Shown: piece after piece, positions 1 through 12,320 of the stretch
How positions within the stretch are numbered: the stretch's first letter is position 1
How the letters are laid out: each line of letters starts with the position of its first letter
NCBI GenBank assembly: GCA_038206355.1
Contig: JBBRAY010000017.1
Coordinates: forward strand, 4,364-68,363
Length of the DNA stretch: 64,000 nt
DNA from: Bacteroidia bacterium
GTDB lineage: Bacteria > Bacteroidota > Bacteroidia > AKYH767-A > 2013-40CM-41-45
Reading direction: 5' to 3'
Notes under the pieces: generated by a model
The model's input: only the letters and a program-made list of their open reading frames with translations
Databases searched by the model: none
Told to the model about the DNA's origin: nothing
Made by a program: the position numbers and the translations under genes

Positions 1-516
1 AACACGACAACCTGTGCTGTATCGACAGCATGGACGACATCAAGTTCAGTGGATCAGTTTTATACTGCCATGGATAGCGGAGCCACAATGGTCGCTTATT
101 ATGGTGGCTTCGGAATGCCAACTGTAGTTCTTGTGGGCGGACTTGATCACCGGACAATGTTTTCAACGTTGAGTTTCAGTACAAGTGATACCACCATTAT
201 GCGCGATTCTATAATGGCCCTGTATAGTCAGTTGAATGGTGTGAATCAAATCTCTTCCGTGGTTTCCCGGTTTGCGGTTTTTCCAAATCCGGCAACAGAC
301 ATGATAAATATCAATGTTGATCTGAATGAAACAACAGATCTGCTCATTGATATTGCTGATATTACAGGAAAACAAGTGGCACTTGTTATGGATGAAAAAA
401 GTAGCGGAATTGTATCTAAACAATTTGACACCAATTCTCTTGCGAATGGAAGTTACCTTGTACGATTAACTATAAATGGTAAAACCACAACAAGAAAATT
501 AACAGTCAACCATTGA
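1..516 (+). CDS. T9SS C-terminal-sorting-domain protein, 3' fragment (the reading frame is open to the window start, so the gene begins upstream)
   Basis: There is no stop between position 1 and the GTG at 49. The last ~90 aa (VFPNPATDMININVDL...GSYLVRLTINGKTTTRKLTVNH) have the FPNPA...beta-sandwich pattern of T9SS type-A sorting domains. Confidence 0.6.
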   Translation, partial: NTTTCAVSTAWTTSSSVDQFYTAMDSGATMVAYYGGFGMPTVVLVGGLDHRTMFSTLSFSTSDTTIMRDSIMALYSQLNGVNQISSVVSRFAVFPNPATDMININVDLNETTDLLIDIADITGKQVALVMDEKSSGIVSKQFDTNSLANGSYLVRLTINGKTTTRKLTVNH

Positions 517-1217
517 TTTTGAAAAAAATTCTCCAATACATACTATTATCGGTGGCCGGATTTTTTCCGGCTACCGGTAATTCTTTTGGCCAGAACTATT
601 CAATTTCTCCAAATGATTCAGTAGAAATTTCGGGAGTCTTTGAGGACCTGCAAACGCTTATCGTTAATCAAATAAATACGTCAAACGATACACTTCACTT
701 GCAGTGGGAAAAAATAGACGAAAACATTCCACTTCTCTGGGAGGCCTCTGTATGTGATAATTCATTCTGTTATTCTACGCTGGAAGAAAGCGGATACATG
801 GACCCTGTATTGCCGGGGGAGTATGGTTTTTTGCTTTTGCACATCACTCCTCATGTAAATTTCGGCACCTCAGTTATCCGTTATGCTGTATGGGATACCA
901 ATTTTCCATTGGTAAAAGACACACTCACCTATATTCTAAAGGTTGATTCAGCCAATGCAATCGGTGAAGCGGGAAAAGGGACAGGAGTGAAACTATATCC
1001 GAATCCGGCAACAAATTTTATTCACCTTACCGCCGATTGGGAATCCGGATTTTCTTATTCCATCTCTGATTTATCAGGCAAAGAAATCAATATAGGTATT
1101 GCATCCACCGGTTCCATTTCAATTCCTGCAATCAATTTTCAAAACGGAATTTACCAAATTGCAATAACCCGGAAATCAAAAACGACTACCGTTCTGAAAT
1201 TTATGATTCATCATTAA
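513..1217 (+). CDS. Secreted hypothetical protein with T9SS C-terminal sorting domain
   Basis: N-terminal hydrophobic signal-like segment. The C-terminus (KLYPNPATNFIHLTADW...GIYQIAITRKSKTTTVLKFMIHH) is T9SS sorting-domain-like. The start is uncertain (a TTG overlapping the previous stop). Confidence 0.5.
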   Translation: MILKKILQYILLSVAGFFPATGNSFGQNYSISPNDSVEISGVFEDLQTLIVNQINTSNDTLHLQWEKIDENIPLLWEASVCDNSFCYSTLEESGYMDPVLPGEYGFLLLHITPHVNFGTSVIRYAVWDTNFPLVKDTLTYILKVDSANAIGEAGKGTGVKLYPNPATNFIHLTADWESGFSYSISDLSGKEINIGIASTGSISIPAINFQNGIYQIAITRKSKTTTVLKFMIHH

Positions 1218-2948
1218 ATGAAAAAAACATACATACTTTTTTTTATTCTACTATCCGGCAAAATTAATTTTGCACAAAATCCTTTATTCATTCCTCCCGC
1301 ATTAACAGGATCTACTTTTAACCTCAGCATTCAGGATGGCATTACTCAGTTTTACCCCGGGATCAATACACCTACTTATGGCATTAACGGTCCATTACTT
1401 GCCCCAACCCTCATTGTAAATAAATGGGACTGGGTAACAATGAATGTCACAAACAACCTGGCAGGAAACGGAAATTCGACAACCATTCACTGGCACGGAA
1501 TGCACGTACCTGCAATGGATGACGGCGGACCACACCAGGTAATTCTGCAAGGTTCAACATGGAGTCCGGATTTTCAGATCCTGAATTCCGCGGCTACTTT
1601 CTGGTACCATCCACACGGTGAAAATAAAACGGACCGCCACGTTTCTAAAGGCCTTGCCGGGCTGATCATCGTTAAAGACAGTTTGGAAGCATCACTTACA
1701 CTTCCACGCACATATGGCTTAGATGATTTTCCTGTCATTGTTCAATCCAAAGCTTTTGATGTTCTCAATCAGATTGCCATTGCCACTGAAGGCGATACTG
1801 CTGTATGTGTGAATGGAACAATGCATCCATATTTAGATGTTCCTGCTCAGGTTGTCCGATTACGTTTGCTGAACGGCTCTTCAATGCGCTCCTACAATTT
1901 TGGATTCACCGGCAATAAACCATTTAAAATGATTGCCACAGATGCCGGATTGCTTGACAGTGCAATTAACCTGACCAGAATATTATTAAACCCCGGCGAA
2001 AGGGCAGAAATCCTTCTGGACCTCCAGGGCATGATAGGGCAAACAATTTTTTTAAACAGTTACAGTTCCGAATTACCAAATGGTATTTATGGCGCAGCGA
2101 CTGTAACAGGAATGATGGGCGGTACAATTCCAGAATATGATTTAAATCCTTTGAATGGTGCTGACTTTGGAATACTACAGTTAAACGTAGTTGCACAAAC
2201 AGGAAATCCCGTTACCACATTTCCTACGACCCTGGAGTCAAATTATCCATGGACCAACTTCTCCCATTCACGAAATTTCACTTTCGCGCCTGATACAATG
2301 ATGAGTGCACAGGGGCAAGTTGAAGGACCGTTTAATATTAATGGAACACATTTCGACATGGGAGTTATCAATGAAATCACCTATCTCAACACAACAGAAA
2401 AGTGGAGAATCACAAATAACACGGGCATCGCACACCCGTTTCATATGCATGATATGCATTTTTACTTGCTGAATATCAATGGCGGAGTTGTTCCGCCTGA
2501 GTTGCGGGGAAAAAAAGATGTGGTATTGGTAATGCCCATGCAATATGTGGAGTTCATTACCAGGTTTGAAGATTTTGCTGACGACAGTATTCCTTATATG
2601 TATCACTGTCATCTATTACATCATGAAGATGATGGAATGATGGGTTCGTTTGTTGTTGTTGATACGACAGGAACAGCTATTCAGGAGACTGACAGGAACG
2701 CCTTTGAGATTTTCCCGAATCCCGCTTCGGGGTTGATCAGTGTAAAGACAATTACCACCATGAACATTGCAGAAATCAACATTTCCGTTTTTGATATTTC
2801 GGGTAGAAATATAAAATCAAATACGGTCCAGACTTCAGTTGATCAATTCACACTTGATCTTAATGAGATAGAAGATGGGATTTACTTTATCGCACTCAGA
2901 TCCGGAAATATGAATGTCACAAAAAAAATTATTATTCATAAATTATAA
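1218..2948 (+). CDS. Three-domain multicopper oxidase (laccase/CotA/bilirubin-oxidase-like) with T9SS C-terminal sorting domain
   Basis: Copper-ligand motifs HWHGMHV, HPHGEN, HPFHMHDMHF and HCHLLHHEDDGMMG are present. There is a signal peptide. The C-terminus (FEIFPNPASGLISVKT...GIYFIALRSGNMNVTKKIIIHKL) matches the T9SS sorting-domain pattern. Confidence 0.8.
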   Translation: MKKTYILFFILLSGKINFAQNPLFIPPALTGSTFNLSIQDGITQFYPGINTPTYGINGPLLAPTLIVNKWDWVTMNVTNNLAGNGNSTTIHWHGMHVPAMDDGGPHQVILQGSTWSPDFQILNSAATFWYHPHGENKTDRHVSKGLAGLIIVKDSLEASLTLPRTYGLDDFPVIVQSKAFDVLNQIAIATEGDTAVCVNGTMHPYLDVPAQVVRLRLLNGSSMRSYNFGFTGNKPFKMIATDAGLLDSAINLTRILLNPGERAEILLDLQGMIGQTIFLNSYSSELPNGIYGAATVTGMMGGTIPEYDLNPLNGADFGILQLNVVAQTGNPVTTFPTTLESNYPWTNFSHSRNFTFAPDTMMSAQGQVEGPFNINGTHFDMGVINEITYLNTTEKWRITNNTGIAHPFHMHDMHFYLLNINGGVVPPELRGKKDVVLVMPMQYVEFITRFEDFADDSIPYMYHCHLLHHEDDGMMGSFVVVDTTGTAIQETDRNAFEIFPNPASGLISVKTITTMNIAEINISVFDISGRNIKSNTVQTSVDQFTLDLNEIEDGIYFIALRSGNMNVTKKIIIHKL

Positions 2949-3411: not shown

Positions 3412-3981
3412 ATGAAAAAGAAAATAATGTTTATCAGTCTTGCATTTTGTGCATCGACACTAATTTCATGTGCCCAGGCGAAACATGAACAAAAAAGTAA
3501 AGAATCAAAGACATCCGTTGTCTTATTTGAGAACACAAATGAGGAAGTAAAGACTCAAATCAATAATCTGCTTTCGGATTATATTAAACTAAAAGACGCC
3601 CTTGTAGCCGATGATGCAAAGATGACTGCCGTCAATACAAAAGCATTCCGAAAAACACTTGAGTTGATTGAAATGAATAAAATGACCGGCGCTGAGCATA
3701 CTTACTTTATGACGATGCAACCAAAACTTGATTATGATGCAGAACATATTCAAGGAGCACCGAATATAGATCACATGCGCGAACATTTTGCAACCCTATC
3801 CGACAATTTATTTTCTCTCGTGAAAGCATTTAAAGCAAACAATGGCACTGTTATTTATCTGGATCATTGTCCGATGTACGACAAAGGCGCAAACTGGATC
3901 AGCACTGAAGAGTCGATTAGAAATCCTTATTTCGGAAAACAAATGCCTACCTGTGGCAAGGTGACTGAAACACTGAATTAG
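3412..3981 (+). CDS. Periplasmic lipoprotein, DUF3347-like (a family that recurs in Bacteroidota metal-resistance loci)
   Basis: Lipobox LISCAQ. The body is helical, with a C-terminal HCPMY...MPTCGKV cysteine/His/Met segment. The family assignment is from memory of the DUF3347 architecture, not a search. Confidence 0.45.
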   Translation: MKKKIMFISLAFCASTLISCAQAKHEQKSKESKTSVVLFENTNEEVKTQINNLLSDYIKLKDALVADDAKMTAVNTKAFRKTLELIEMNKMTGAEHTYFMTMQPKLDYDAEHIQGAPNIDHMREHFATLSDNLFSLVKAFKANNGTVIYLDHCPMYDKGANWISTEESIRNPYFGKQMPTCGKVTETLN

Positions 3982-4081: not shown

Positions 4082-6424
4082 ATGGTTCGATCGAATAGAA
4101 TATCATTCCCACGGATTTCTAAATACGGGAAAAACTTTTTGCGGCTCGTAATCACATTACAGATTATTTCTTCATATGACTTATCGGCACAAAAGGTTGT
4201 GCGATACGACCTTTTGGTAAAAGACACCATTGTTAATTTTTCGGGAAAACAAAAACGTGCCATTGCAGTGAACGGACAAATCCCAATGCCGACGCTCACA
4301 TTTACAGAAGGAGATACGGCAGAAATATATGTGCACAATGAACTGAACGAAGAAACTTCTCTTCATTGGCATGGCTTGTTTTTGCCGAATCAATTTGACG
4401 GAGTACCAAATCTTACGCAGATGCCAATCAAGGCGCATCACACCCATTTATATAGATTCCCAATCATACAAAACGGTACGCACTGGTACCATAGTCATTC
4501 AGGATTGCAGGAACAGATAGGAATGTATGGATCAATGATCCTTAATAAAAAAGAATCTGATATAACCTATCGTAATGGAATAGATGATTTACCAACAGTT
4601 CCAATTATAATCAGTGAATGGACTGATATGAATCCGAGGCAGGTTCACCGGAGATTACACAATGCCTCCGACTGGTTTGCGATAAAGAAAGGAACCACAC
4701 AAAGTTATGGAGAAGCCATCGTGCAAGGGCATTTCAAAACGAAAGTGGCCAATGAATGGAAACGCATGAATGCAATGGATGTCAGTGATGTCTACTATGA
4801 CAAATTTTTGATCAATGGTCAAAATCATTTTGCACAATCTCAATTCAAGGCTGGAGATAAGGTCCGGTTAAGAATTTCCAATGGTGGTGCTTCAGATTAT
4901 TTCTGGCTTACCTATTCCGGCGGCAGGATTACCGTGGTAGCCACTGATGGTAGTGATGTTGAACCTGTTGAGGTTGACAGACTGATCATCGCCGTTTCAG
5001 AAACCTACGATGTGATTGTTACTGTTCCTGAAAATATGAGTTATGAATTTCTGGTAACGCCCGAAGATAGAACCAAGTCAGCATCTCTTTGGCTCGGATC
5101 AGGCATGAAGATGCCGGCCACACCCTTGCCGAAGTTAAAATATTTTGCCGGAATGAAAATGATGAACGGGATGATGAAGATGAATGGCGATCTTGATGAT
5201 ATGGGAATGAAGATGAGTCTGAATCAGATGGACATGAATAATGTGATGTATCCGGAAATTACAGGAGACGGGAAAAAGAAATCTAAAACGAAATCCGAAG
5301 GTCATGACATGCACAACATGCAAATGGGTGAAGATTCAAATTCCCCGGATGCAATGAAGGATATAGTTACACTGAATTATGCAATGCTGAAATCTCCGGT
5401 TGCCACAACACTTCCATCAGATGCACCGGTGAAGGAATTATTTTTTGAACTTACCGGTAATATGAACCGCTATGTATGGAGTATAAATAATAAAGTAATT
5501 TCCGAGAAAGAAAAAATTCTGATCAGGAAAGGAGAGAATGTACGCATCATATTATACAACAACTCAATGATGCGCCATCCTATGCATTTGCATGGACATG
5601 ACTTCCGCATATTGAATGGACAAGGCGCACATGCACCGTTAAAAAATGTGTTGGACATCATGCCGATGGAAACCGATACGATTGAATTTAACGCCAATGT
5701 TTATGGCGACTGGTTTTTTCATTGCCATATCCTTTATCATATGATGAGCGGTATGGGCAGGATATTCAGTTATGAAAATCAGCCGGCTAATCCTGAAATT
5801 ACAAATCCCGGACTGGCAAAACGGAAATTTATTTCCGAAGACAGGAAATTTCATTTTATGCTGAGTGCAGGAATTGAAACAAACGGCTCCGACGGAGAGG
5901 CAATGTTTGCTAATACCAGATGGAATGCAAAAACCATGTGGCATTTGGGATTTCATTCAGGTCATGGTTATGAAAGTGAAACGATGTTTGGAAGATATTT
6001 TGGAAAAATGCAGTGGCTGTATGCATACACAGGCTTTGATTATCATTACAAGACTGATGGTCCGACGCAGAAAAATTTTGTTGATATGGAGGGAAGCCCG
6101 AAAAATATTTTCGGGAGTGAGGAAATGAACTGGTTTGGGCAACGCAGTGATAAAAATAACAGGCAGACTGCAGTTTTAGGGATTGCTTATACCCTTCCCA
6201 TGTTACTCGTTGCTGACATCAGGGTTGACCTCAATTCCAAACTTCGTTTTCAACTAGCGAGAGAAGATATACCTTTAACCAAAAGATTTCGCGGAAGCAT
6301 CATGTTGAATACGGACAAGGAATACATGATAGGCCTCCACTATATTGCAATGAAACTTATTTCACTTTCAACGCACTATGACAGCGACATGGGTTGGGGT
6401 GCGGGCTTGATGTTTACTTACTGA
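4082..6424 (+). CDS. CopA/CueO-like multicopper oxidase with a methionine-rich segment and a ~230-aa C-terminal extension resembling an outer-membrane CopB-like beta-barrel
   Basis: MCO motifs HWHGL, HWYHSH, HPMHLHGHDF and HCHILYHMMSGM are present. The Met-rich tract (GMKMPATP...GMKMMNGMMKMNGDLDDMGMKMSLNQMDMNN) is typical of periplasmic Cu-resistance CopA. The C-terminal tail has alternating hydrophobic residues and ends in an aromatic residue (..AGLMFTY). Confidence 0.75.
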   Translation: MVRSNRISFPRISKYGKNFLRLVITLQIISSYDLSAQKVVRYDLLVKDTIVNFSGKQKRAIAVNGQIPMPTLTFTEGDTAEIYVHNELNEETSLHWHGLFLPNQFDGVPNLTQMPIKAHHTHLYRFPIIQNGTHWYHSHSGLQEQIGMYGSMILNKKESDITYRNGIDDLPTVPIIISEWTDMNPRQVHRRLHNASDWFAIKKGTTQSYGEAIVQGHFKTKVANEWKRMNAMDVSDVYYDKFLINGQNHFAQSQFKAGDKVRLRISNGGASDYFWLTYSGGRITVVATDGSDVEPVEVDRLIIAVSETYDVIVTVPENMSYEFLVTPEDRTKSASLWLGSGMKMPATPLPKLKYFAGMKMMNGMMKMNGDLDDMGMKMSLNQMDMNNVMYPEITGDGKKKSKTKSEGHDMHNMQMGEDSNSPDAMKDIVTLNYAMLKSPVATTLPSDAPVKELFFELTGNMNRYVWSINNKVISEKEKILIRKGENVRIILYNNSMMRHPMHLHGHDFRILNGQGAHAPLKNVLDIMPMETDTIEFNANVYGDWFFHCHILYHMMSGMGRIFSYENQPANPEITNPGLAKRKFISEDRKFHFMLSAGIETNGSDGEAMFANTRWNAKTMWHLGFHSGHGYESETMFGRYFGKMQWLYAYTGFDYHYKTDGPTQKNFVDMEGSPKNIFGSEEMNWFGQRSDKNNRQTAVLGIAYTLPMLLVADIRVDLNSKLRFQLAREDIPLTKRFRGSIMLNTDKEYMIGLHYIAMKLISLSTHYDSDMGWGAGLMFTY

Positions 6425-6571
6425 ATTCATTTTATAATTTGGCGGTGTGTAAAGCAGCCAGATGATTGAATGAAAACAAATCACTTATGGCTAGAATATT
6501 TTCAAAACGTTTTATTTCCTCTGATTTTTTTTCAGTACGACATAATTTGAAATGGATAAAACTTTTCAAAT

Positions 6572-7852
6572 ATGATTGAAAAAATAATCAGCTGGAGTAT
6601 CAGGCACCGGTACGAGGTGGTTTTGTTCACCTTGTTAACCATTGGGTTTGGCTGGTTTGCCCTAAAAAATACGCCTATTGATGCCATTCCCGATTTATCA
6701 GAAAACCAGGTAATTGTTTTTACGGAATGGATGGGACGCAGTCCGCAATTAATAGAAGACCAGGTTACCTATCCGCTTGTTTCAAATTTGCAAGGCATAC
6801 CGAAAGTAAAAAACATACGCGGCACTTCGATGTTCGGAATGAGTTTCGTTTATCTTATTTTTGAAGATGATGTGGATTTATACTGGGCACGGTCACGTGT
6901 ACTGGAGCGTTTAAATTATGCGCAGCGTTTATTGCCCGAAGGCGTAACCGCCAATCTTGGACCTGACGGCACAGGCGTTGGACATGTTTTCTGGTACACC
7001 ATAAAAGCGCCCGGTCTGGATTTAGGCGAGCAGCGTGCATTACAGGATTGGTACGTTAAGTTTGCTTTACAAACAGTTCCCGGTGTAAGTGAAGTCGCAT
7101 CATTTGGCGGATTTGAAAAACAATTTCAGATCACACTTGATCCTCACAAATTAAATTACTACAACATCCCTATGATGGATGTATTGCGCGCAGCCAAGAG
7201 TAATAACAATGATGTGGGAGGCCGTAAATTTGAAATGAGCAGCATGGCTTATATTATTCGCGGCTTAGGTTACATAAAAAATCTGGAGGATGTAGAAAAC
7301 ATTCCTGTGGGCGTTTATAATTCCGTTCCAGTAAGGATGAAAGATTTGGGAAGCGTACAGATGGGAGGCGCTTTGCGACTCGGCATATTTGATAACAACG
7401 GACAAGGCGAAGCAGTAGGAGGAATTGTGGTGATGCGTTATGGCGAAAACGCTGATAAAGTGATTAATGATGTAAAAGCAAAAATGAAAGATGTTGGCAA
7501 AGGGTTACCCGATGGTGTAACCTTTAATATTGCTTATGACAGAAGCGTGCTGATTGAAAGTGCAATGGAAACATTGAAACGAATTCTAACCGAAGAGATG
7601 ATTATCGTTTCCATTGTAATTATGATTTTTCTTTTTCACCTGCGGAGTTCCCTCATTGTAATTATCACACTACCGATTGCAATTCTCATCAGTTTTATAT
7701 TAATGTATTGGTTTAAGATTTCTTCCAACATCATGTCGCTCTCCGGAATTGCAATTGCAATAGGAGTAATTGTTGATGCCGCCATTGTGATGATTGAAAA
7801 TACACATCGTCATTTATCAGATGCACAAATAAAAAAGGAGGCTGAATTATGA
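6572..7852 (+). CDS. CusA/CzcA-family heavy-metal efflux RND permease, N-terminal 426 aa (the gene is split here by a -1 frameshift)
   Basis: The N-terminus (MIEKIISWSIRHRYEVVLFTLL...IPDLSENQVIVFTEWMGRSPQLIEDQVTYPL) is the canonical CusA start. The ORF ends in an ATGA overlap with the next ORF, which continues the same protein. Confidence 0.85.
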   Translation: MIEKIISWSIRHRYEVVLFTLLTIGFGWFALKNTPIDAIPDLSENQVIVFTEWMGRSPQLIEDQVTYPLVSNLQGIPKVKNIRGTSMFGMSFVYLIFEDDVDLYWARSRVLERLNYAQRLLPEGVTANLGPDGTGVGHVFWYTIKAPGLDLGEQRALQDWYVKFALQTVPGVSEVASFGGFEKQFQITLDPHKLNYYNIPMMDVLRAAKSNNNDVGGRKFEMSSMAYIIRGLGYIKNLEDVENIPVGVYNSVPVRMKDLGSVQMGGALRLGIFDNNGQGEAVGGIVVMRYGENADKVINDVKAKMKDVGKGLPDGVTFNIAYDRSVLIESAMETLKRILTEEMIIVSIVIMIFLFHLRSSLIVIITLPIAILISFILMYWFKISSNIMSLSGIAIAIGVIVDAAIVMIENTHRHLSDAQIKKEAEL

Positions 7853-9780
7853 ATTTGAAATTCTGGAAAAAGCAGCCCAATGATTTACTCTCTAAAGAAG
7901 AACGGAAAGCTATAATTGAAAAATCTTCTCACCAGGTTGGTCGTCCAATATTTTTCTCGACCATCATAATTGTCGTTTCTTTTTTGCCTGTATTTATGCT
8001 TACAGGAATGGAAGGGAAATTATTTCATCCGCTTGCTTATACAAAAACATTTGTATTGCTTGGCTCTGCATTGCTTGCCATCACTATCGTTCCGGTGCTG
8101 ATGATTTTATTTATGAAAGGAAAAGTAAAACCCGAAGGTAGTAATCCGGTTTCGCGTTTTTTTGAAAAATTATACGCTCCAGTTTTGCATTTATGTCTGG
8201 AATGGAAAAAAACAACACTTGCAATTAATGTTGTGGCATTAATCATCGGAATTTTTCTTACCTTGAATTTGGGTTCAGAATTTATGCCCCCGTTGGATGA
8301 AGGCTCTATTTTGCTGATGCCTGTTACCATGCCCGATGTAAGTAACTCCGAAGCAAAGCGCATCATTCAGTTGCAGGACAAAATAATCATGACCGTTCCT
8401 GAAGTGCATCATGTACTTGGTAAAGCAGGTCGTGCAAATACAGCAACCGACAATTCCCCTATCAGCATGATTGAAACAATTATTTTGCTGAAACCAAAAA
8501 CGGAATGGAGAAAAGGAATTTCGAAAGAGGATATTGTGAATGAACTGAATTCGAAATTGCAAATTCCGGGAGTAGTTAACGGCTGGACACAACCTATCAT
8601 CAACCGCATCAATATGCTTTCAACAGGAATCAGAACGGATGTGGGTTTGAAAGTATATGGTCAGAGTTTGGATACGATTTACAAACTTTCGGTGATGATG
8701 AAAAAGGAATTGGAAGATATCCGTGGCGTTAAAGATTTATATGTGGAGCCAATTACCGGAGGAAAATATCTCGACATCAAAATTAAAAAAACGGAAATAG
8801 GAAGATATGGTTTGAGTGAGAACGATGTAAACATGCTGGTGGAATCAGCATTGGGCGGAATGAACCTGACCTCTGTAATTGACGGAAGGCAACGCTTTAG
8901 TGTGAATGCACGGTTTGCACAAAACTTCCGAAACAGCATTGAAGACATCAAACGATTACTCGTCCAGACGCCTTCATATGGTCCGGTGCCCTTGAGTGCA
9001 GTAGCAGACGTTTACATTAGTGAAGGACCACCAATGATAAATTCAGAAAATGCAATGCTCCGCGGAACCGTGTTGTTCAATGTGCGCGACCGCGACCTTG
9101 GCGGCACTGTGAATGAAGCCATGAAAAAATTAAATGACATGGTGCAAAAACTTCCCAAAGGATATTACATCGAATGGAGCGGACAATGGGAAAATCAGGT
9201 GCGTGCAAACAAGCGATTGTCCATCATCATTCCACTTGCGTTGTTATCCATTTTCATACTTTTATTTTACACCTACAGATCGCTGAAAGAAGCCATTATC
9301 ACTTCCATCAGTGTTCCGTTTGCATTGATTGGCGGAGTTTATATTATTTATTTCTACGGAATTAATTTATCCGTTGCTGTTGCAGTGGGATTTATTGCAT
9401 TGCTCGGTGTTGCTGTTGAAACGGGTGTGCTCATGGTAATTTATCTGGATGAAGCAATGATAAAACTCACGGAGGAAAAAGGAAATAACCGTGAGAGTAT
9501 TACCCCGTTGGATATTCGCAAAGCCGTAGTGGCAGGCTCAGTAAAAAGATTGCGACCGAAACTAATGACGGTGGCTGCTGCAATCATGGGATTGATTCCG
9601 ATTTTATTATCGGATGCAACAGGCAGTGATGTAATGCGACCCATAGCACTGCCGATGATAGGCGGAATGGTCACTTCAGCAATACATGTACTGTTAGTTA
9701 CGCCAATTATTTTTTTACTGACAAAGGAATATGAATTTAAGAAACATGGGAAAATTGATGTGCTCAATGCCAAGCATTAA
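7849..9780 (+). CDS. CusA/CzcA-family RND permease, C-terminal 643 aa (continuation after the frameshift)
   Basis: The sequence continues colinearly with CusA (…GRPIFFSTIIIVVSFLPVF…, C-terminal TM bundle, IGGMVTSAIHVLLVTPIIF). The combined 426+643 aa is about the CusA length. Confidence 0.85.
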   Translation: MNLKFWKKQPNDLLSKEERKAIIEKSSHQVGRPIFFSTIIIVVSFLPVFMLTGMEGKLFHPLAYTKTFVLLGSALLAITIVPVLMILFMKGKVKPEGSNPVSRFFEKLYAPVLHLCLEWKKTTLAINVVALIIGIFLTLNLGSEFMPPLDEGSILLMPVTMPDVSNSEAKRIIQLQDKIIMTVPEVHHVLGKAGRANTATDNSPISMIETIILLKPKTEWRKGISKEDIVNELNSKLQIPGVVNGWTQPIINRINMLSTGIRTDVGLKVYGQSLDTIYKLSVMMKKELEDIRGVKDLYVEPITGGKYLDIKIKKTEIGRYGLSENDVNMLVESALGGMNLTSVIDGRQRFSVNARFAQNFRNSIEDIKRLLVQTPSYGPVPLSAVADVYISEGPPMINSENAMLRGTVLFNVRDRDLGGTVNEAMKKLNDMVQKLPKGYYIEWSGQWENQVRANKRLSIIIPLALLSIFILLFYTYRSLKEAIITSISVPFALIGGVYIIYFYGINLSVAVAVGFIALLGVAVETGVLMVIYLDEAMIKLTEEKGNNRESITPLDIRKAVVAGSVKRLRPKLMTVAAAIMGLIPILLSDATGSDVMRPIALPMIGGMVTSAIHVLLVTPIIFLLTKEYEFKKHGKIDVLNAKH

Positions 9781-9788
9781 TTAATAAA

Positions 9789-11024
9789 ATGAAAAAGAAT
9801 TGTGTCATCTGTATTTTGATTTTGTTTTTGGGCAGTAGTTGTCTTAAAATAAATGCACAGGTAATTTCTCTCGATTCCATTCTAACGGCTGTGGAGACAA
9901 ATTACCCGATGCTTAAAATGTATGATGAAAAAATAAAAGCACTAAACGCAAATGCCGAAGGGGCGAAGTCATGGATGCCACCGCAATTCGGGGTTGGTTT
10001 GTTTATGACACCTTACAATTTTCAAAAGGATATGGGGGCTGTTATGCTTAGCGGCGAACAAATGATTCCAAATCCGGTGAAACTATCAGCAAATAAAAAA
10101 TACATGCAAAGTATGTCGGCCGTAGAATCAGATAGTAAATCCTATTCAAAGAACCAGATGTTCGGAATGGCAAAAATGATTTACTACGATTGGGTGGTGA
10201 TGAAGATGAAAAAACTCGTGCTTACCCGGAATGAAGAACTTTTGAATTTTACCATTGCCAGTGCAGAAAACAGGTACCCCTATGGTAAAGAAAAATTAAA
10301 TAATATTTATAAAGCCAAAGCCCAATTGTATGAAGTTTATAATATGCAGTTAATGCTTGACAAAGACATTTCTCAGATGAGGATTGCACTGAACACGTTG
10401 TTGAACGTTGATAAAAATACAACGTTTGATGTAGACACCAACTTTATAATCCAAAATTATGATGTCAGCTTGGTGGATATTTCATCGTTTAAATCTTTTC
10501 GCAGTGACATCAAACTGGCAGAGTCACAAATCAGCATGATGCAATACAAACAGCAGCTTGAAAAGAATGCCCGACTTCCTGATTTTGGTATCAGGTACGA
10601 TCATATGAATACCCTGGGTAAGTCTTCTAATCTCTTTTCAATTATGGGAATGATTACCATCCCAATTGCTCCATGGTCTTCAGGTATGTACAAGGCAAAT
10701 GTGAAAGGCCTCGGATTTGAAATTCAATCCAAGCAGTTTCTAAAAGTGGACATCGTAAATGAAGCAGCCGGTAAACTGGAAGATTTGCGAATACAAATTA
10801 AATTCAAAAAACAGCAATTGATTCTTTACAGTGATAGCATATTGCCGGCTCTTAAAAACAACTATCAGATTACAATAATAGCATATGATCAAAATACCGA
10901 TGATTTATTCATGGTTCTTGACGCATGGCAAATGCTCAACATGAAAGAATTGGAATATTACGACCGTGTGGGTGAACTTTTGCAGTTGCAAGTCGGCTAT
11001 GAAAAAGAAATTGAAAAGCGATAA
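9789..11024 (+). CDS. TolC-like outer-membrane efflux channel (CusC/CzcC-type OMF)
   Basis: Signal peptide, then the typical OMF N-terminal helix (LDSILTAVETNYPMLKMYDEKIKALNANAEGAKS). About 410 aa with coiled-coil repeats. It lies between the RND permease and the adaptor genes. Confidence 0.75.
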   Translation: MKKNCVICILILFLGSSCLKINAQVISLDSILTAVETNYPMLKMYDEKIKALNANAEGAKSWMPPQFGVGLFMTPYNFQKDMGAVMLSGEQMIPNPVKLSANKKYMQSMSAVESDSKSYSKNQMFGMAKMIYYDWVVMKMKKLVLTRNEELLNFTIASAENRYPYGKEKLNNIYKAKAQLYEVYNMQLMLDKDISQMRIALNTLLNVDKNTTFDVDTNFIIQNYDVSLVDISSFKSFRSDIKLAESQISMMQYKQQLEKNARLPDFGIRYDHMNTLGKSSNLFSIMGMITIPIAPWSSGMYKANVKGLGFEIQSKQFLKVDIVNEAAGKLEDLRIQIKFKKQQLILYSDSILPALKNNYQITIIAYDQNTDDLFMVLDAWQMLNMKELEYYDRVGELLQLQVGYEKEIEKR

Positions 11025-11027
11025 AGG

Positions 11028-12320
11028 ATGATTAACAGAAAAAATAAATTAAATAAAATATTCTTCATCGTAACGATTTCAATTTCGGCGGCCTTTCTAT
11101 TTGGCTGTAATGAAAATAATTCATCACATGATGATCACAATCATTTGACTGAAAATAAAATATATACCTGCTCCATGCATCCGCAGATCATTCGAAATGC
11201 CCCAGGGAACTGCCCAATTTGCGGAATGAAGCTGATTGAAAAAACACAAGGCGTATCACTTGATGGAAACATCAACATCACTGATGTGGTAAAACCAACA
11301 GATGAATCTGTAATTTCAAATGTAAAAACTTTCACGGTAAAAGAATTGATTTTTCGACCTAAAATTACAAGTATTGGAAGTATTGAATATGACACCAGAA
11401 GATTTACAAACATTGCATCAACAATTGACGGGCGTATAGAGCATCTGTATGTTAAGTACCAATATCAGGTGATTCATAAAGGAGAAAAACTATACGATAT
11501 TTATAGTCCGGCTTTACAGACTGAAGTACAGAACTTAATTTATCTTTTAAATCATGAATCGGATAATTCCAATTTAGTTATTGCTTCAAAACTGAAATTG
11601 AAATTACTTGGTTTGTCGCATATGCAGCTTGATGAAATATCAACAAACAAACAAGCAACTGCTACCCTCAGCATTTACAGCCCGGCCGACGGATACGTTA
11701 TAGACAATTCAATGAATGTCGTTTCTTCAAATCAGTCCATGCCAATGGCTACCTTATCACAAAATAAATCTGCATCTACTAATTCTTTTTCAATGAAAGA
11801 AGGGCAGTATGTTAAACAAGGGGAAACCGTTTTTAAAGTCATCAACACACAGAAGGTTTGGGCAGTGATGAATATATATGCCGATGAAATTAATCACATT
11901 TCGAAAGGACAATCAGTAAAACTGATAATGGATAATATGCGGGATGACACGTTGATCACAAAAATTGATTTTGTGGAACCCGTGTTTGATTCCGGCAACA
12001 AATTTTTAAAGCTCCGCGCCTATCTCGATAATCCTACGGGCATGTTGATTCGCGGCAATTTATTTCACTCATATATTCAAACAGAACTCACATCAGGATT
12101 TTGGATCCCGAAATCTGCAGTGCTTGATTTAGGCAAAGAAAAAGTAGTGTATGTTCAAAATGAAAATATGTTTTATGCCCGCTTGATAACCACCGGCGCC
12201 GCCGTAAATCAGCATGTGCGTATTACTGCCGGATTACATTCAGGAGAAACAATTGCATCAAACGCACAGTATCTAATGGATAGTGAAAGTTTTATAAAAA
12301 TTAAAACACATGAAAATTAA
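11028..12320 (+). CDS. RND periplasmic adaptor (CusB-like membrane fusion protein) with an N-terminal CxxC heavy-metal-binding domain
   Basis: Lipobox FLFGCNEN. The motif YTCSMHPQIIRNAPGNCPICGMKL matches the YxCPMHP...CPxCGM metal-binding domain found at CusB N-termini. The rest is a membrane-fusion-protein beta-barrel/lipoyl-like body. Confidence 0.8.
   Translation: MINRKNKLNKIFFIVTISISAAFLFGCNENNSSHDDHNHLTENKIYTCSMHPQIIRNAPGNCPICGMKLIEKTQGVSLDGNINITDVVKPTDESVISNVKTFTVKELIFRPKITSIGSIEYDTRRFTNIASTIDGRIEHLYVKYQYQVIHKGEKLYDIYSPALQTEVQNLIYLLNHESDNSNLVIASKLKLKLLGLSHMQLDEISTNKQATATLSIYSPADGYVIDNSMNVVSSNQSMPMATLSQNKSASTNSFSMKEGQYVKQGETVFKVINTQKVWAVMNIYADEINHISKGQSVKLIMDNMRDDTLITKIDFVEPVFDSGNKFLKLRAYLDNPTGMLIRGNLFHSYIQTELTSGFWIPKSAVLDLGKEKVVYVQNENMFYARLITTGAAVNQHVRITAGLHSGETIASNAQYLMDSESFIKIKTHEN

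Follow-up and report, generated by a model that had tools for sequence, protein, structure and literature searches.

A CopA-like multicopper oxidase fused to a predicted CopB-like outer-membrane beta-barrel in the Bacteroidota

Results and Discussion

In a stretch of 64,000 nucleotides from a Bacteroidia bacterium (contig JBBRAY010000017.1, assembly GCA_038206355.1; referred to here as the window), a plus-strand gene at 4082..6424 encodes a CopA/PcoA-like three-domain multicopper oxidase that continues, in the same reading frame, into a predicted 12-stranded outer-membrane beta-barrel. We propose, with a probability of roughly 0.65, that this gene encodes, in a single polypeptide, a counterpart of the copper-resistance pair CopA/CopB (PcoA/PcoB). 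The gene is located within a copper-resistance island. Its architecture is abundant in public genomes and common in the Bacteroidota, and has been remarked upon once in the literature (PMC11213822); a dedicated analysis of, or experiment on, the oxidase-barrel fusion was not found there.

The gene and its oxidase part

The open reading frame (ORF) runs from an ATG start to a TGA stop over 780 amino acids (aa) without any internal stop codon. As described in the first-pass annotation of this DNA, it is uninterrupted and proceeds beyond the third cupredoxin domain, namely for another 214 residues (567-780) that end in ...GAGLMFTY. All four copper-ligand motifs of multicopper oxidases (HxHG, HxH, HxxHxH and HCHxxxHxxxxM) are intact, with HWHG at residue 95, HSH at 137, HPMHLH at 499 and HCHILYHMMSGM at 547. 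Coordinates of the domains are compiled in Table 1.

Among the NCBIfam models, TIGR01480 (copper_res_A) is by far the top match to the oxidase part (aa 36-560), its 377.4 bits lying below the curated cut-off of 478.95 bits. Sequence identity amounts to 34% with PcoA of E. coli and to 38-39% with alphaproteobacterial CopA proteins, and the full-length AlphaFold2 (AF2) model matches structures of three-domain oxidases at E 1e-36. The Met-rich insert ahead of domain 3 is a feature of CopA/PcoA/CueO-type cuprous oxidases. The earlier assignment as a CopA-type oxidase is borne out by these matches: as judged from its sequence, the oxidase part is CopA/PcoA-like, and a cuprous oxidase activity conferring copper tolerance is predicted for it.

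In the window protein, the oxidase is preceded by the signal peptide alone, which on alignment resembles the canonical signal peptides of relatives. Many of the latter (loci L016-L091, e.g. L018, L023, L029, L046 and L048) carry a long N-terminal extension before the oxidase, including a heavy-metal-binding domain (..PGNCPKCGMKL..) and Met/His-rich repeats, which is absent from the window protein.

Conservation and distribution of the fusion

We scanned one genome per GTDB species for the tail and obtained at least 586 matching loci, 80 of which were kept for analysis. Across the kept loci the tail is conserved at 50-71% identity, and in 78 of them it shares the reading frame of the oxidase's HCH...GM copper motif. 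Their stop-to-stop ORFs comprise 740-1030 codons, a few being shorter owing to a contig end or an upstream stop. When the tail alone was used in a protein search, 489 proteins were found, and most among the matches listed also have a preceding Cu-oxidase_2 domain. In a tblastn search of 72,556 plasmids, matches to the tail were confined to the Bacteroidota (Hymenobacter, Pontibacter, Flavobacterium, Ornithobacterium, Bernardetia and Mucilaginibacter); neither Proteobacteria nor a proteobacterial copB were among them. All but one of the plasmid matches listed fall under a coding sequence (CDS) annotated as "multicopper oxidase domain-containing protein"; RefSeq entries for complete plasmids of Pontibacter, Bernardetia, Mucilaginibacter, Flavobacterium and Hymenobacter give the fused protein as a single CDS (728-917 aa). 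This distribution, with 79 of the 80 kept loci bearing Bacteroidota-type names and all plasmid matches falling into the same phylum, is a taxonomic difference from CopA/CopB. The single exception, L038 (CAZKQW010000012.1), belongs to a metagenome-assembled genome (MAG) labelled "uncultured Pseudomonadota bacterium", with a copy 62% identical to a Chitinophagales-type tail; it is probably explained by misbinning or mislabelling and not by presence of the gene in Proteobacteria.

These data bear on the question if a sequencing or assembly frameshift, or the loss of a stop codon, has joined an adjacent copA and barrel gene in the window. A CusA-like gene nearby is split into two ORFs (see below), so that indels are possible in this assembly. 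However, the identical in-frame fusion recurs in the 78 independent genomes and on complete plasmids in RefSeq that represent four families, and the junction contains neither an intergenic spacer nor a start codon or second signal peptide. Furthermore, the apparent standalone tail proteins in the databases that begin with MMSGMGR..., which is inside the oxidase copper motif, look from their sequence like truncated gene calls. Since the in-frame fusion is conserved across genomes, a chance read-through is very unlikely, and for practical purposes we exclude an assembly or frameshift artefact.

The "standalone" barrel proteins that emerged from the first homology search were rejected as separate copB-like genes, as most of them start either at MMSGMGR... 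or at the beginning of the barrel. The sole true standalone barrel that we found (P0291; L092, 6001..6654, Bacteroides sp. MAG GCA_021201335.1) has 217 aa and its own signal peptide, and is flanked by an MsrA/MsrB fusion gene and a major facilitator superfamily (MFS) transporter gene, with no oxidase adjacent; in the window and in 78 of the 80 kept loci, the barrel is covalently tied to a CopA/PcoA-type oxidase. A triple fusion is seen in P0281 (1345 aa, Logan assembly), which combines a glucose/sorbosone dehydrogenase (GSDH) domain, the three-domain oxidase and the barrel. In a plasmid of Hymenobacter sp. DG25B (L007), the annotation divides the fused gene into two CDSs of 448 and 360 aa (4109..5455 and 5476..6558), the break falling between oxidase domains 2 and 3, within their Met-rich linker. 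P0090 of Mucilaginibacter robiniae (358 aa) looks alike, and either a frameshift or a natural split may underlie the break in both cases.

Predicted fold of the tail

The AF2 model of the tail, calculated from a 40-sequence alignment, shows a short helix (aa ~576-588) and then 12 antiparallel beta-strands, at a predicted local distance difference test score (pLDDT) of 88.5 and a predicted template modelling score (pTM) of 0.79. Both termini of the predicted barrel are on the same side, as in PcoB, a 12-stranded barrel whose termini are both periplasmic (PMC9210255). In a Foldseek search of the PDB, the matches listed for the tail were almost all membrane beta-barrels and nearly all bacterial outer-membrane proteins. 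The best two are 12-stranded barrels, KdgM (4fqe; E 5.0e-4, TM-scores 0.44/0.53) and PcoB (7pge; E 5.6e-4, probability 1.00, TM-scores 0.44/0.47).

The two faces of the strands differ as in a membrane barrel: among 84 family members, mean hydropathy is +1.39 on the lipid face and -1.32 on the lumen face. The latter is also the more conserved one (0.72 vs 0.62), and 22 of the 57 residues of its consensus are charged or His, including 11 acidic residues and 4 His. At the C-terminus, the sequence pattern G-x-G-h-x-h-x-Y (GAGLMFTY) looks like an outer-membrane beta-signal. In the full-length model, disorder is confined to the signal peptide and the Met-rich insert, and its pTM suggests that oxidase and barrel pack in a defined arrangement. 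The beta-barrel prediction that the first-pass annotation had proposed as a check thus gave the expected fold, and we predict with high confidence that the tail forms a 12-stranded outer-membrane barrel.

Relation of the tail to CopB/PcoB

A search of 1.84 billion representative proteins with a profile of the tail yielded 361 relatives at E ≤ 1e-3. With eight of 64 scanned relatives matching it, CopB (PF05275) leads the barrel families in Pfam in both number and strength of matches, followed by OMP_b-brl with three and by DUF481, DUF2490, Autotransporter and Phage_OMP with one each. The divergent fused relative P0390, which carries the IMG label "uncharacterized protein involved in copper resistance", reaches 30.5 bits (E 3.4e-7) and thereby exceeds the PF05275 gathering score of 27 bits. 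The seven others remain under this cut-off, five of them scoring 18-23 bits individually; E values of other divergent fused relatives are 7e-5 (P0326), 9e-5 (P0349), 3e-4 (P0354), 7e-4 (P0411) and 2e-3 (P0318). The window tail is connected to the divergent intermediates by BLASTP (E 2e-17 to 8e-9, with near full-length coverage for P0354 and P0411), and the intermediate clade to the window clade by hhalign (probability 100%, E 6e-43). On the other side, hhalign links the intermediate fused clade to a five-sequence CopB alignment with 68% probability (E 4.8e-5, score 40.8).

The register was the same in every comparison, with "R..AAVGFQGLA...(G)GKAALRLGGEYDVLLTNRL" of PcoB placed opposite "R.TAV.GIAYTLP...DGKLRFQLAREDIPLTKRF" of the family. 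In the window protein, the segment LRFQLAREDIPLTKRF, in which the first-pass annotation had seen a resemblance to CopB/PcoB strands, is indeed the stretch that hhalign aligns to LRLGGEYDVLLTNRL of PcoB; the segment LRFQLAREDIPLTKRFRGSI is located at aa 721-740. E207 and D209 of PcoB ("GEYD..LTNR") align reproducibly with the invariant "RED..LT.R" of the family, and positions for the remaining pore carboxylates of PcoB (pairs D97-E207 and E130-E223) were obtained from a forced global alignment of 0.4% probability.

Several results weigh against a CopB-like fusion protein. No PF05275 or NCBIfam match to the barrel was obtained at E ≤ 1 with the window tail (aa 547-780) or the whole protein, so that the PF05275 search by which the first-pass annotation wanted its CopB assignment to be judged would formally refute it. 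The tail profile retrieved neither PcoB nor any other barrel at E ≤ 10 from all PDB sequences. Direct hhalign comparison of the window clade with CopB (5, then 125 sequences) gave probabilities of 3-5% and scores of 23-25, which lie within the block-shuffle null of 16-27; reversed controls behaved likewise, and this similarity is therefore not above background. For the link between the intermediates and CopB, shuffled scores were mostly 13-29, but two out of 60 reached 35.3 and 42, the latter above the observed 40.8; probably, these two shuffles had kept matching blocks adjacent. A hidden Markov model (HMM) of the intermediate clade peaked at 15 bits on CopB sequences. Foldseek fails to separate PcoB from KdgM, and the TM-scores given above are modest. 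Directly before the barrel, there is no counterpart of the disordered, Met/His-rich stretch at the N-terminus of PcoB, its place being taken by a folded oxidase and a 24-residue linker. Finally, a heuristic scan detected a Tat-like RR motif in none of 76 family N-termini, and the window protein likewise has none; the signals look Sec-type. PcoA and CueO of Proteobacteria are substrates of the twin-arginine translocation (Tat) pathway, so biogenesis of the oxidase-barrel family differs in this respect. A Sec-type rather than a Tat signal makes sense, because the barrel must pass the inner membrane unfolded.

Our own CopB HMM, which is dominated by Pseudomonas sequences, scored the intermediates at E 0.02-0.2. 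When it was run against all window ORFs of at least 80 aa, the sole match was the oxidase-barrel ORF itself, at an insignificant E of 0.17, and no second CopB-like ORF was found. The lone PDB match of a domain-only tail profile, a designed repeat protein, was judged spurious.

As the window tail fails the direct tests while divergent fused relatives match PF05275, we place its homology to CopB in the twilight zone: on sequence grounds the tail is probably a very divergent CopB/PcoB relative, the alternative being convergence on the same small-barrel fold. Of the C-terminal CopB-like barrel claimed in the first-pass annotation, the fold, the PF05275 matches of relatives and the hhalign link through the intermediates have held up, whereas a PF05275 match of the window protein itself has not. 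The description as a CopB-like outer-membrane barrel fused to CopA is supported.

In a rival reading, the barrel merely serves as an anchor: a generic small barrel, convergent with or unrelated to CopB and devoid of a channel or copper role, would fix the oxidase to the outer membrane on its inner face, e.g. near incoming copper. Such a role would be in line with the background-level direct similarity between the window clade and CopB, with Foldseek matches to KdgM, FapF, OmpG and OMPLA that are about equal to that of PcoB, with the weak matches of three of the 64 relatives to the generic OMP_b-brl model, and with the non-copper context of the standalone P0291. On the other hand, a lumen that is more conserved than the lipid face and rich in Asp, Glu and His is unexpected for a mere anchor, and both the prevalence of CopB among the Pfam matches and the 68% link of the intermediate clade point to CopB. 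We thus consider a pure anchor unlikely. KdgM (KdgM/NanC family; see also 2wjr), the best Foldseek match, is likewise a small monomeric 12-stranded barrel, and no sequence or Pfam signal to its family was seen in the window protein or the relatives scanned. Unlike the window protein, KdgM porins are sugar-acid channels without any link to oxidases or copper.

Type Va autotransporters consist of a signal peptide, a passenger, a helix and a C-terminal 12-stranded barrel, and the pore-spanning helices of these proteins are much longer than ~12 residues. The window protein shares the order of an N-terminal functional domain, a (short) helix and a C-terminal 12-stranded barrel. One could hence imagine that the barrel exports the oxidase through its pore, with Cu(I) being oxidised at the cell surface. 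One of the 64 relatives weakly matches the autotransporter domain PF03797 (E 0.0024), and the beta-domain of intimin appears at Foldseek rank 30. However, PF03797 is not matched by the window protein, no classical autotransporter beta-domain is among its top 50 Foldseek matches, and its linker helix has just ~12 residues (576-587). In addition, the N-terminal part is a cofactor-bearing globular enzyme, and a copper-loaded three-domain oxidase of 530 residues would be an unlikely passenger; the locus also already encodes a separate oxidase with a type IX secretion system (T9SS) tail for surface or extracellular placement. Surface display therefore appears highly improbable to us, and we favour a CopA/CopB-like protein with a periplasmic oxidase.

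Proposed function

According to our proposal, the protein would be exported by the Sec pathway via its signal peptide (aa 1-37), and the beta-barrel assembly machinery (BAM) would insert the last ~190 residues into the outer membrane, where they would form a 12-stranded barrel, the putative divergent relative of CopB/PcoB. The three-domain oxidase would stay in the periplasm, tethered to the periplasmic mouth of the barrel by the linker of ~24-25 residues. Its Met-rich loop would capture Cu(I), which the oxidase would turn into Cu(II), and the polar barrel lumen with its acidic and His residues would then bind Cu(II) or conduct it across the outer membrane. We infer the cellular location, the periplasmic side of the oxidase and the passage of copper including its direction. 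This scheme for the fused protein mirrors the two-protein model of PcoA and PcoB.

The function of PcoB/CopB is disputed. One study has assigned Cu(II) uptake to PcoB (PMC9210255); another reported efflux and stabilisation of PcoA, with direct PcoA-PcoB contact being just hypothesised, and found the Met/His-rich disordered N-terminal region to be needed for PcoB function (PMC12509749). A large natural family of CopA-CopB-like fusions would provide independent evolutionary evidence for joint action of the two proteins at the outer membrane, and a natural single-chain CopAB bears on the question how PcoA and PcoB cooperate. More tentatively, and with odds that we put somewhat below even, the fusion might represent an obligate 1:1 oxidase-channel machine, in which the oxidase sits docked to the periplasmic mouth of a barrel of the PcoB type, passing newly formed Cu(II) straight into the pore for exit across the outer membrane. 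If so, it would be a natural "Rosetta stone" indicating a functional physical complex for the proteobacterial pair PcoA and PcoB as well, and would offer a single-chain system to settle the disputed direction of transport (uptake versus efflux). For studies of structure and transport, the fusion in any case offers the convenience of a single-gene construct. For annotation, it means that hundreds of Bacteroidota entries named "multicopper oxidase domain-containing protein" carry a predicted outer-membrane barrel of ~200 residues, a domain that, in the window protein as well as in close relatives, went unrecognised by Pfam and NCBIfam.

Comparison with known systems

In the CopA/CopB system of Pseudomonas syringae and the PcoA/PcoB systems of E. 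coli and Caulobacter, a periplasmic multicopper oxidase is paired with a 12-stranded outer-membrane barrel (PDB 7pge). The window oxidase resembles CopA/PcoA in its three domains, its Met-rich insert and its level of identity (34-39%); the barrel resembles CopB/PcoB in its predicted 12 strands, its size of ~200 residues and its aromatic C-terminal residue. Also in common is the strict association of oxidase and barrel in a copper-resistance context. In contrast to CopA/CopB with its two translationally coupled genes, the window system is a single polypeptide. Unlike CopB, the barrels of the window clade have diverged too far for detection by PF05275; unlike PcoA, the window protein carries a Sec-type signal in place of a Tat signal; and unlike PcoB, its barrel is not directly preceded by a Met/His-rich disordered region.

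In E. coli and Pseudomonas, for which the first-pass annotation had noted separate proteins, and also in Leisingera and Ralstonia, copB/pcoB is a gene of its own that comes directly after the oxidase gene. In a Sphingomonas locus, a CopB-like ORF that is missing from the annotation table follows the oxidase gene.

The one earlier remark on this architecture concerns a multicopper oxidase of Bizionia argentinensis (G2EDV6, 809 aa), described as having a signal peptide, three cupredoxin domains and, at its C-terminus (611-809), what seems to be a "porin-like region" showing "some similarity to PcoB" (PMC11213822, 2024). The remark is a one-sentence annotation. This flavobacterial protein (Flavobacteriaceae) has the same architecture as the window protein, and this, together with a Flavobacterium homologue (L010), leads us to suggest that it belongs to the same family.

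Genomic context

The oxidase-barrel gene is directly preceded by a DUF3347 gene and followed by Cus-like genes of the resistance-nodulation-division (RND) type (Table 1). Further upstream there is a second three-domain multicopper oxidase that ends in a T9SS sorting domain. Two oxidases are thus encoded in this locus, one of them secreted or surface-located and the other fused to the barrel. The Cus-like RND genes and DUF3347 distinguish the window from cop/pco loci; copC and copD genes were not seen near the oxidase-barrel gene in the window.

Table 1. Coordinates of the oxidase-barrel gene, its parts and neighbouring genes in the window
Feature	Position	Strand	Residues and details	Basis
Oxidase-barrel gene (multicopper oxidase with C-terminal barrel)	4082..6424	+	end includes TGA stop	single ORF; full-length AF2 model, pLDDT 82.1, pTM 0.82
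Predicted N-terminal signal peptide, Sec-type	4082..4192	+	aa 1-37; predicted cleavage after ..LSAQ	AF2 helix 14-30; alignment with canonical signal peptides of relatives, e.g. ...TTFAQ|KTIRYDL
Cupredoxin domain 1	4220..4555	+	aa 47-158; HWHG 95-98, HSH 137-139	Pfam PF07732 (Cu-oxidase_3), E 1e-41
Cupredoxin domain 2	4790..5050	+	aa 237-323	Pfam PF00394 (Cu-oxidase), E 6e-17
Met-rich disordered insert	5129..5371	+	aa 350-430; 16 Met in 81 residues	residue count; pLDDT <50 at aa 368-382 and 396-425
Cupredoxin domain 3	5441..5779	+	aa 454-566; HPMHLH 499-504, T1 site HCHILYHMMSGM 547-558	Pfam PF07731 (Cu-oxidase_2), E 4e-27
Oxidase-barrel linker	5780..5851	+	aa 567-590; short helix about 576-587	AF2 secondary structure
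Predicted 12-stranded beta-barrel	5852..6421	+	aa 591-780; long loop aa 657-693 between strands 5 and 6	AF2, Foldseek, hydropathy of faces, transitive PF05275 link
Two small proteins upstream of the copper genes	49..516, 513..1217	+	sole recognisable domain T9SS Por_Secre_tail	Pfam
Second three-domain multicopper oxidase	1218..2948	+	576 aa; T9SS C-terminal sorting domain	Por_Secre_tail, E 1.8e-15
DUF3347 gene	3412..3981	+	directly upstream of the oxidase-barrel gene	Pfam PF11827, E 2.6e-23
Cus-like RND efflux genes	6572..12320	+	CusA-like pump (two ORFs), outer-membrane efflux protein (OEP), CusB-like adaptor with heavy-metal-binding domain	Pfam ACR_tran, OEP, HMBD, HlyD_D23

The CusA-like RND pump is split into the plus-strand ORFs 6572..7852 and 7849..9780, which cover positions 1-420 and 417-1020 of ACR_tran, respectively. 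Stop and start codons overlap at the junction (ATGA), just after an A6 run and an AAGGAGG sequence. The gene may truly be split, its two parts being translationally coupled, or the assembly may contain a 1-nt indel here.

Relatives of the oxidase-barrel gene, including those on plasmids, adjoin genes for a copper P-type ATPase, DUF305, four-helix-bundle copper-binding, DUF2231 and DUF3347 proteins. On the contig of a distant relative (L096), the order is DUF2231, DUF3347 (5392..5952) and oxidase-barrel, and DUF2231 also lies ahead of the oxidase-barrel gene in two Hymenobacter plasmids. DUF3347 and DUF2231 proteins may thus be conserved accessory partners of the oxidase-barrel genes.

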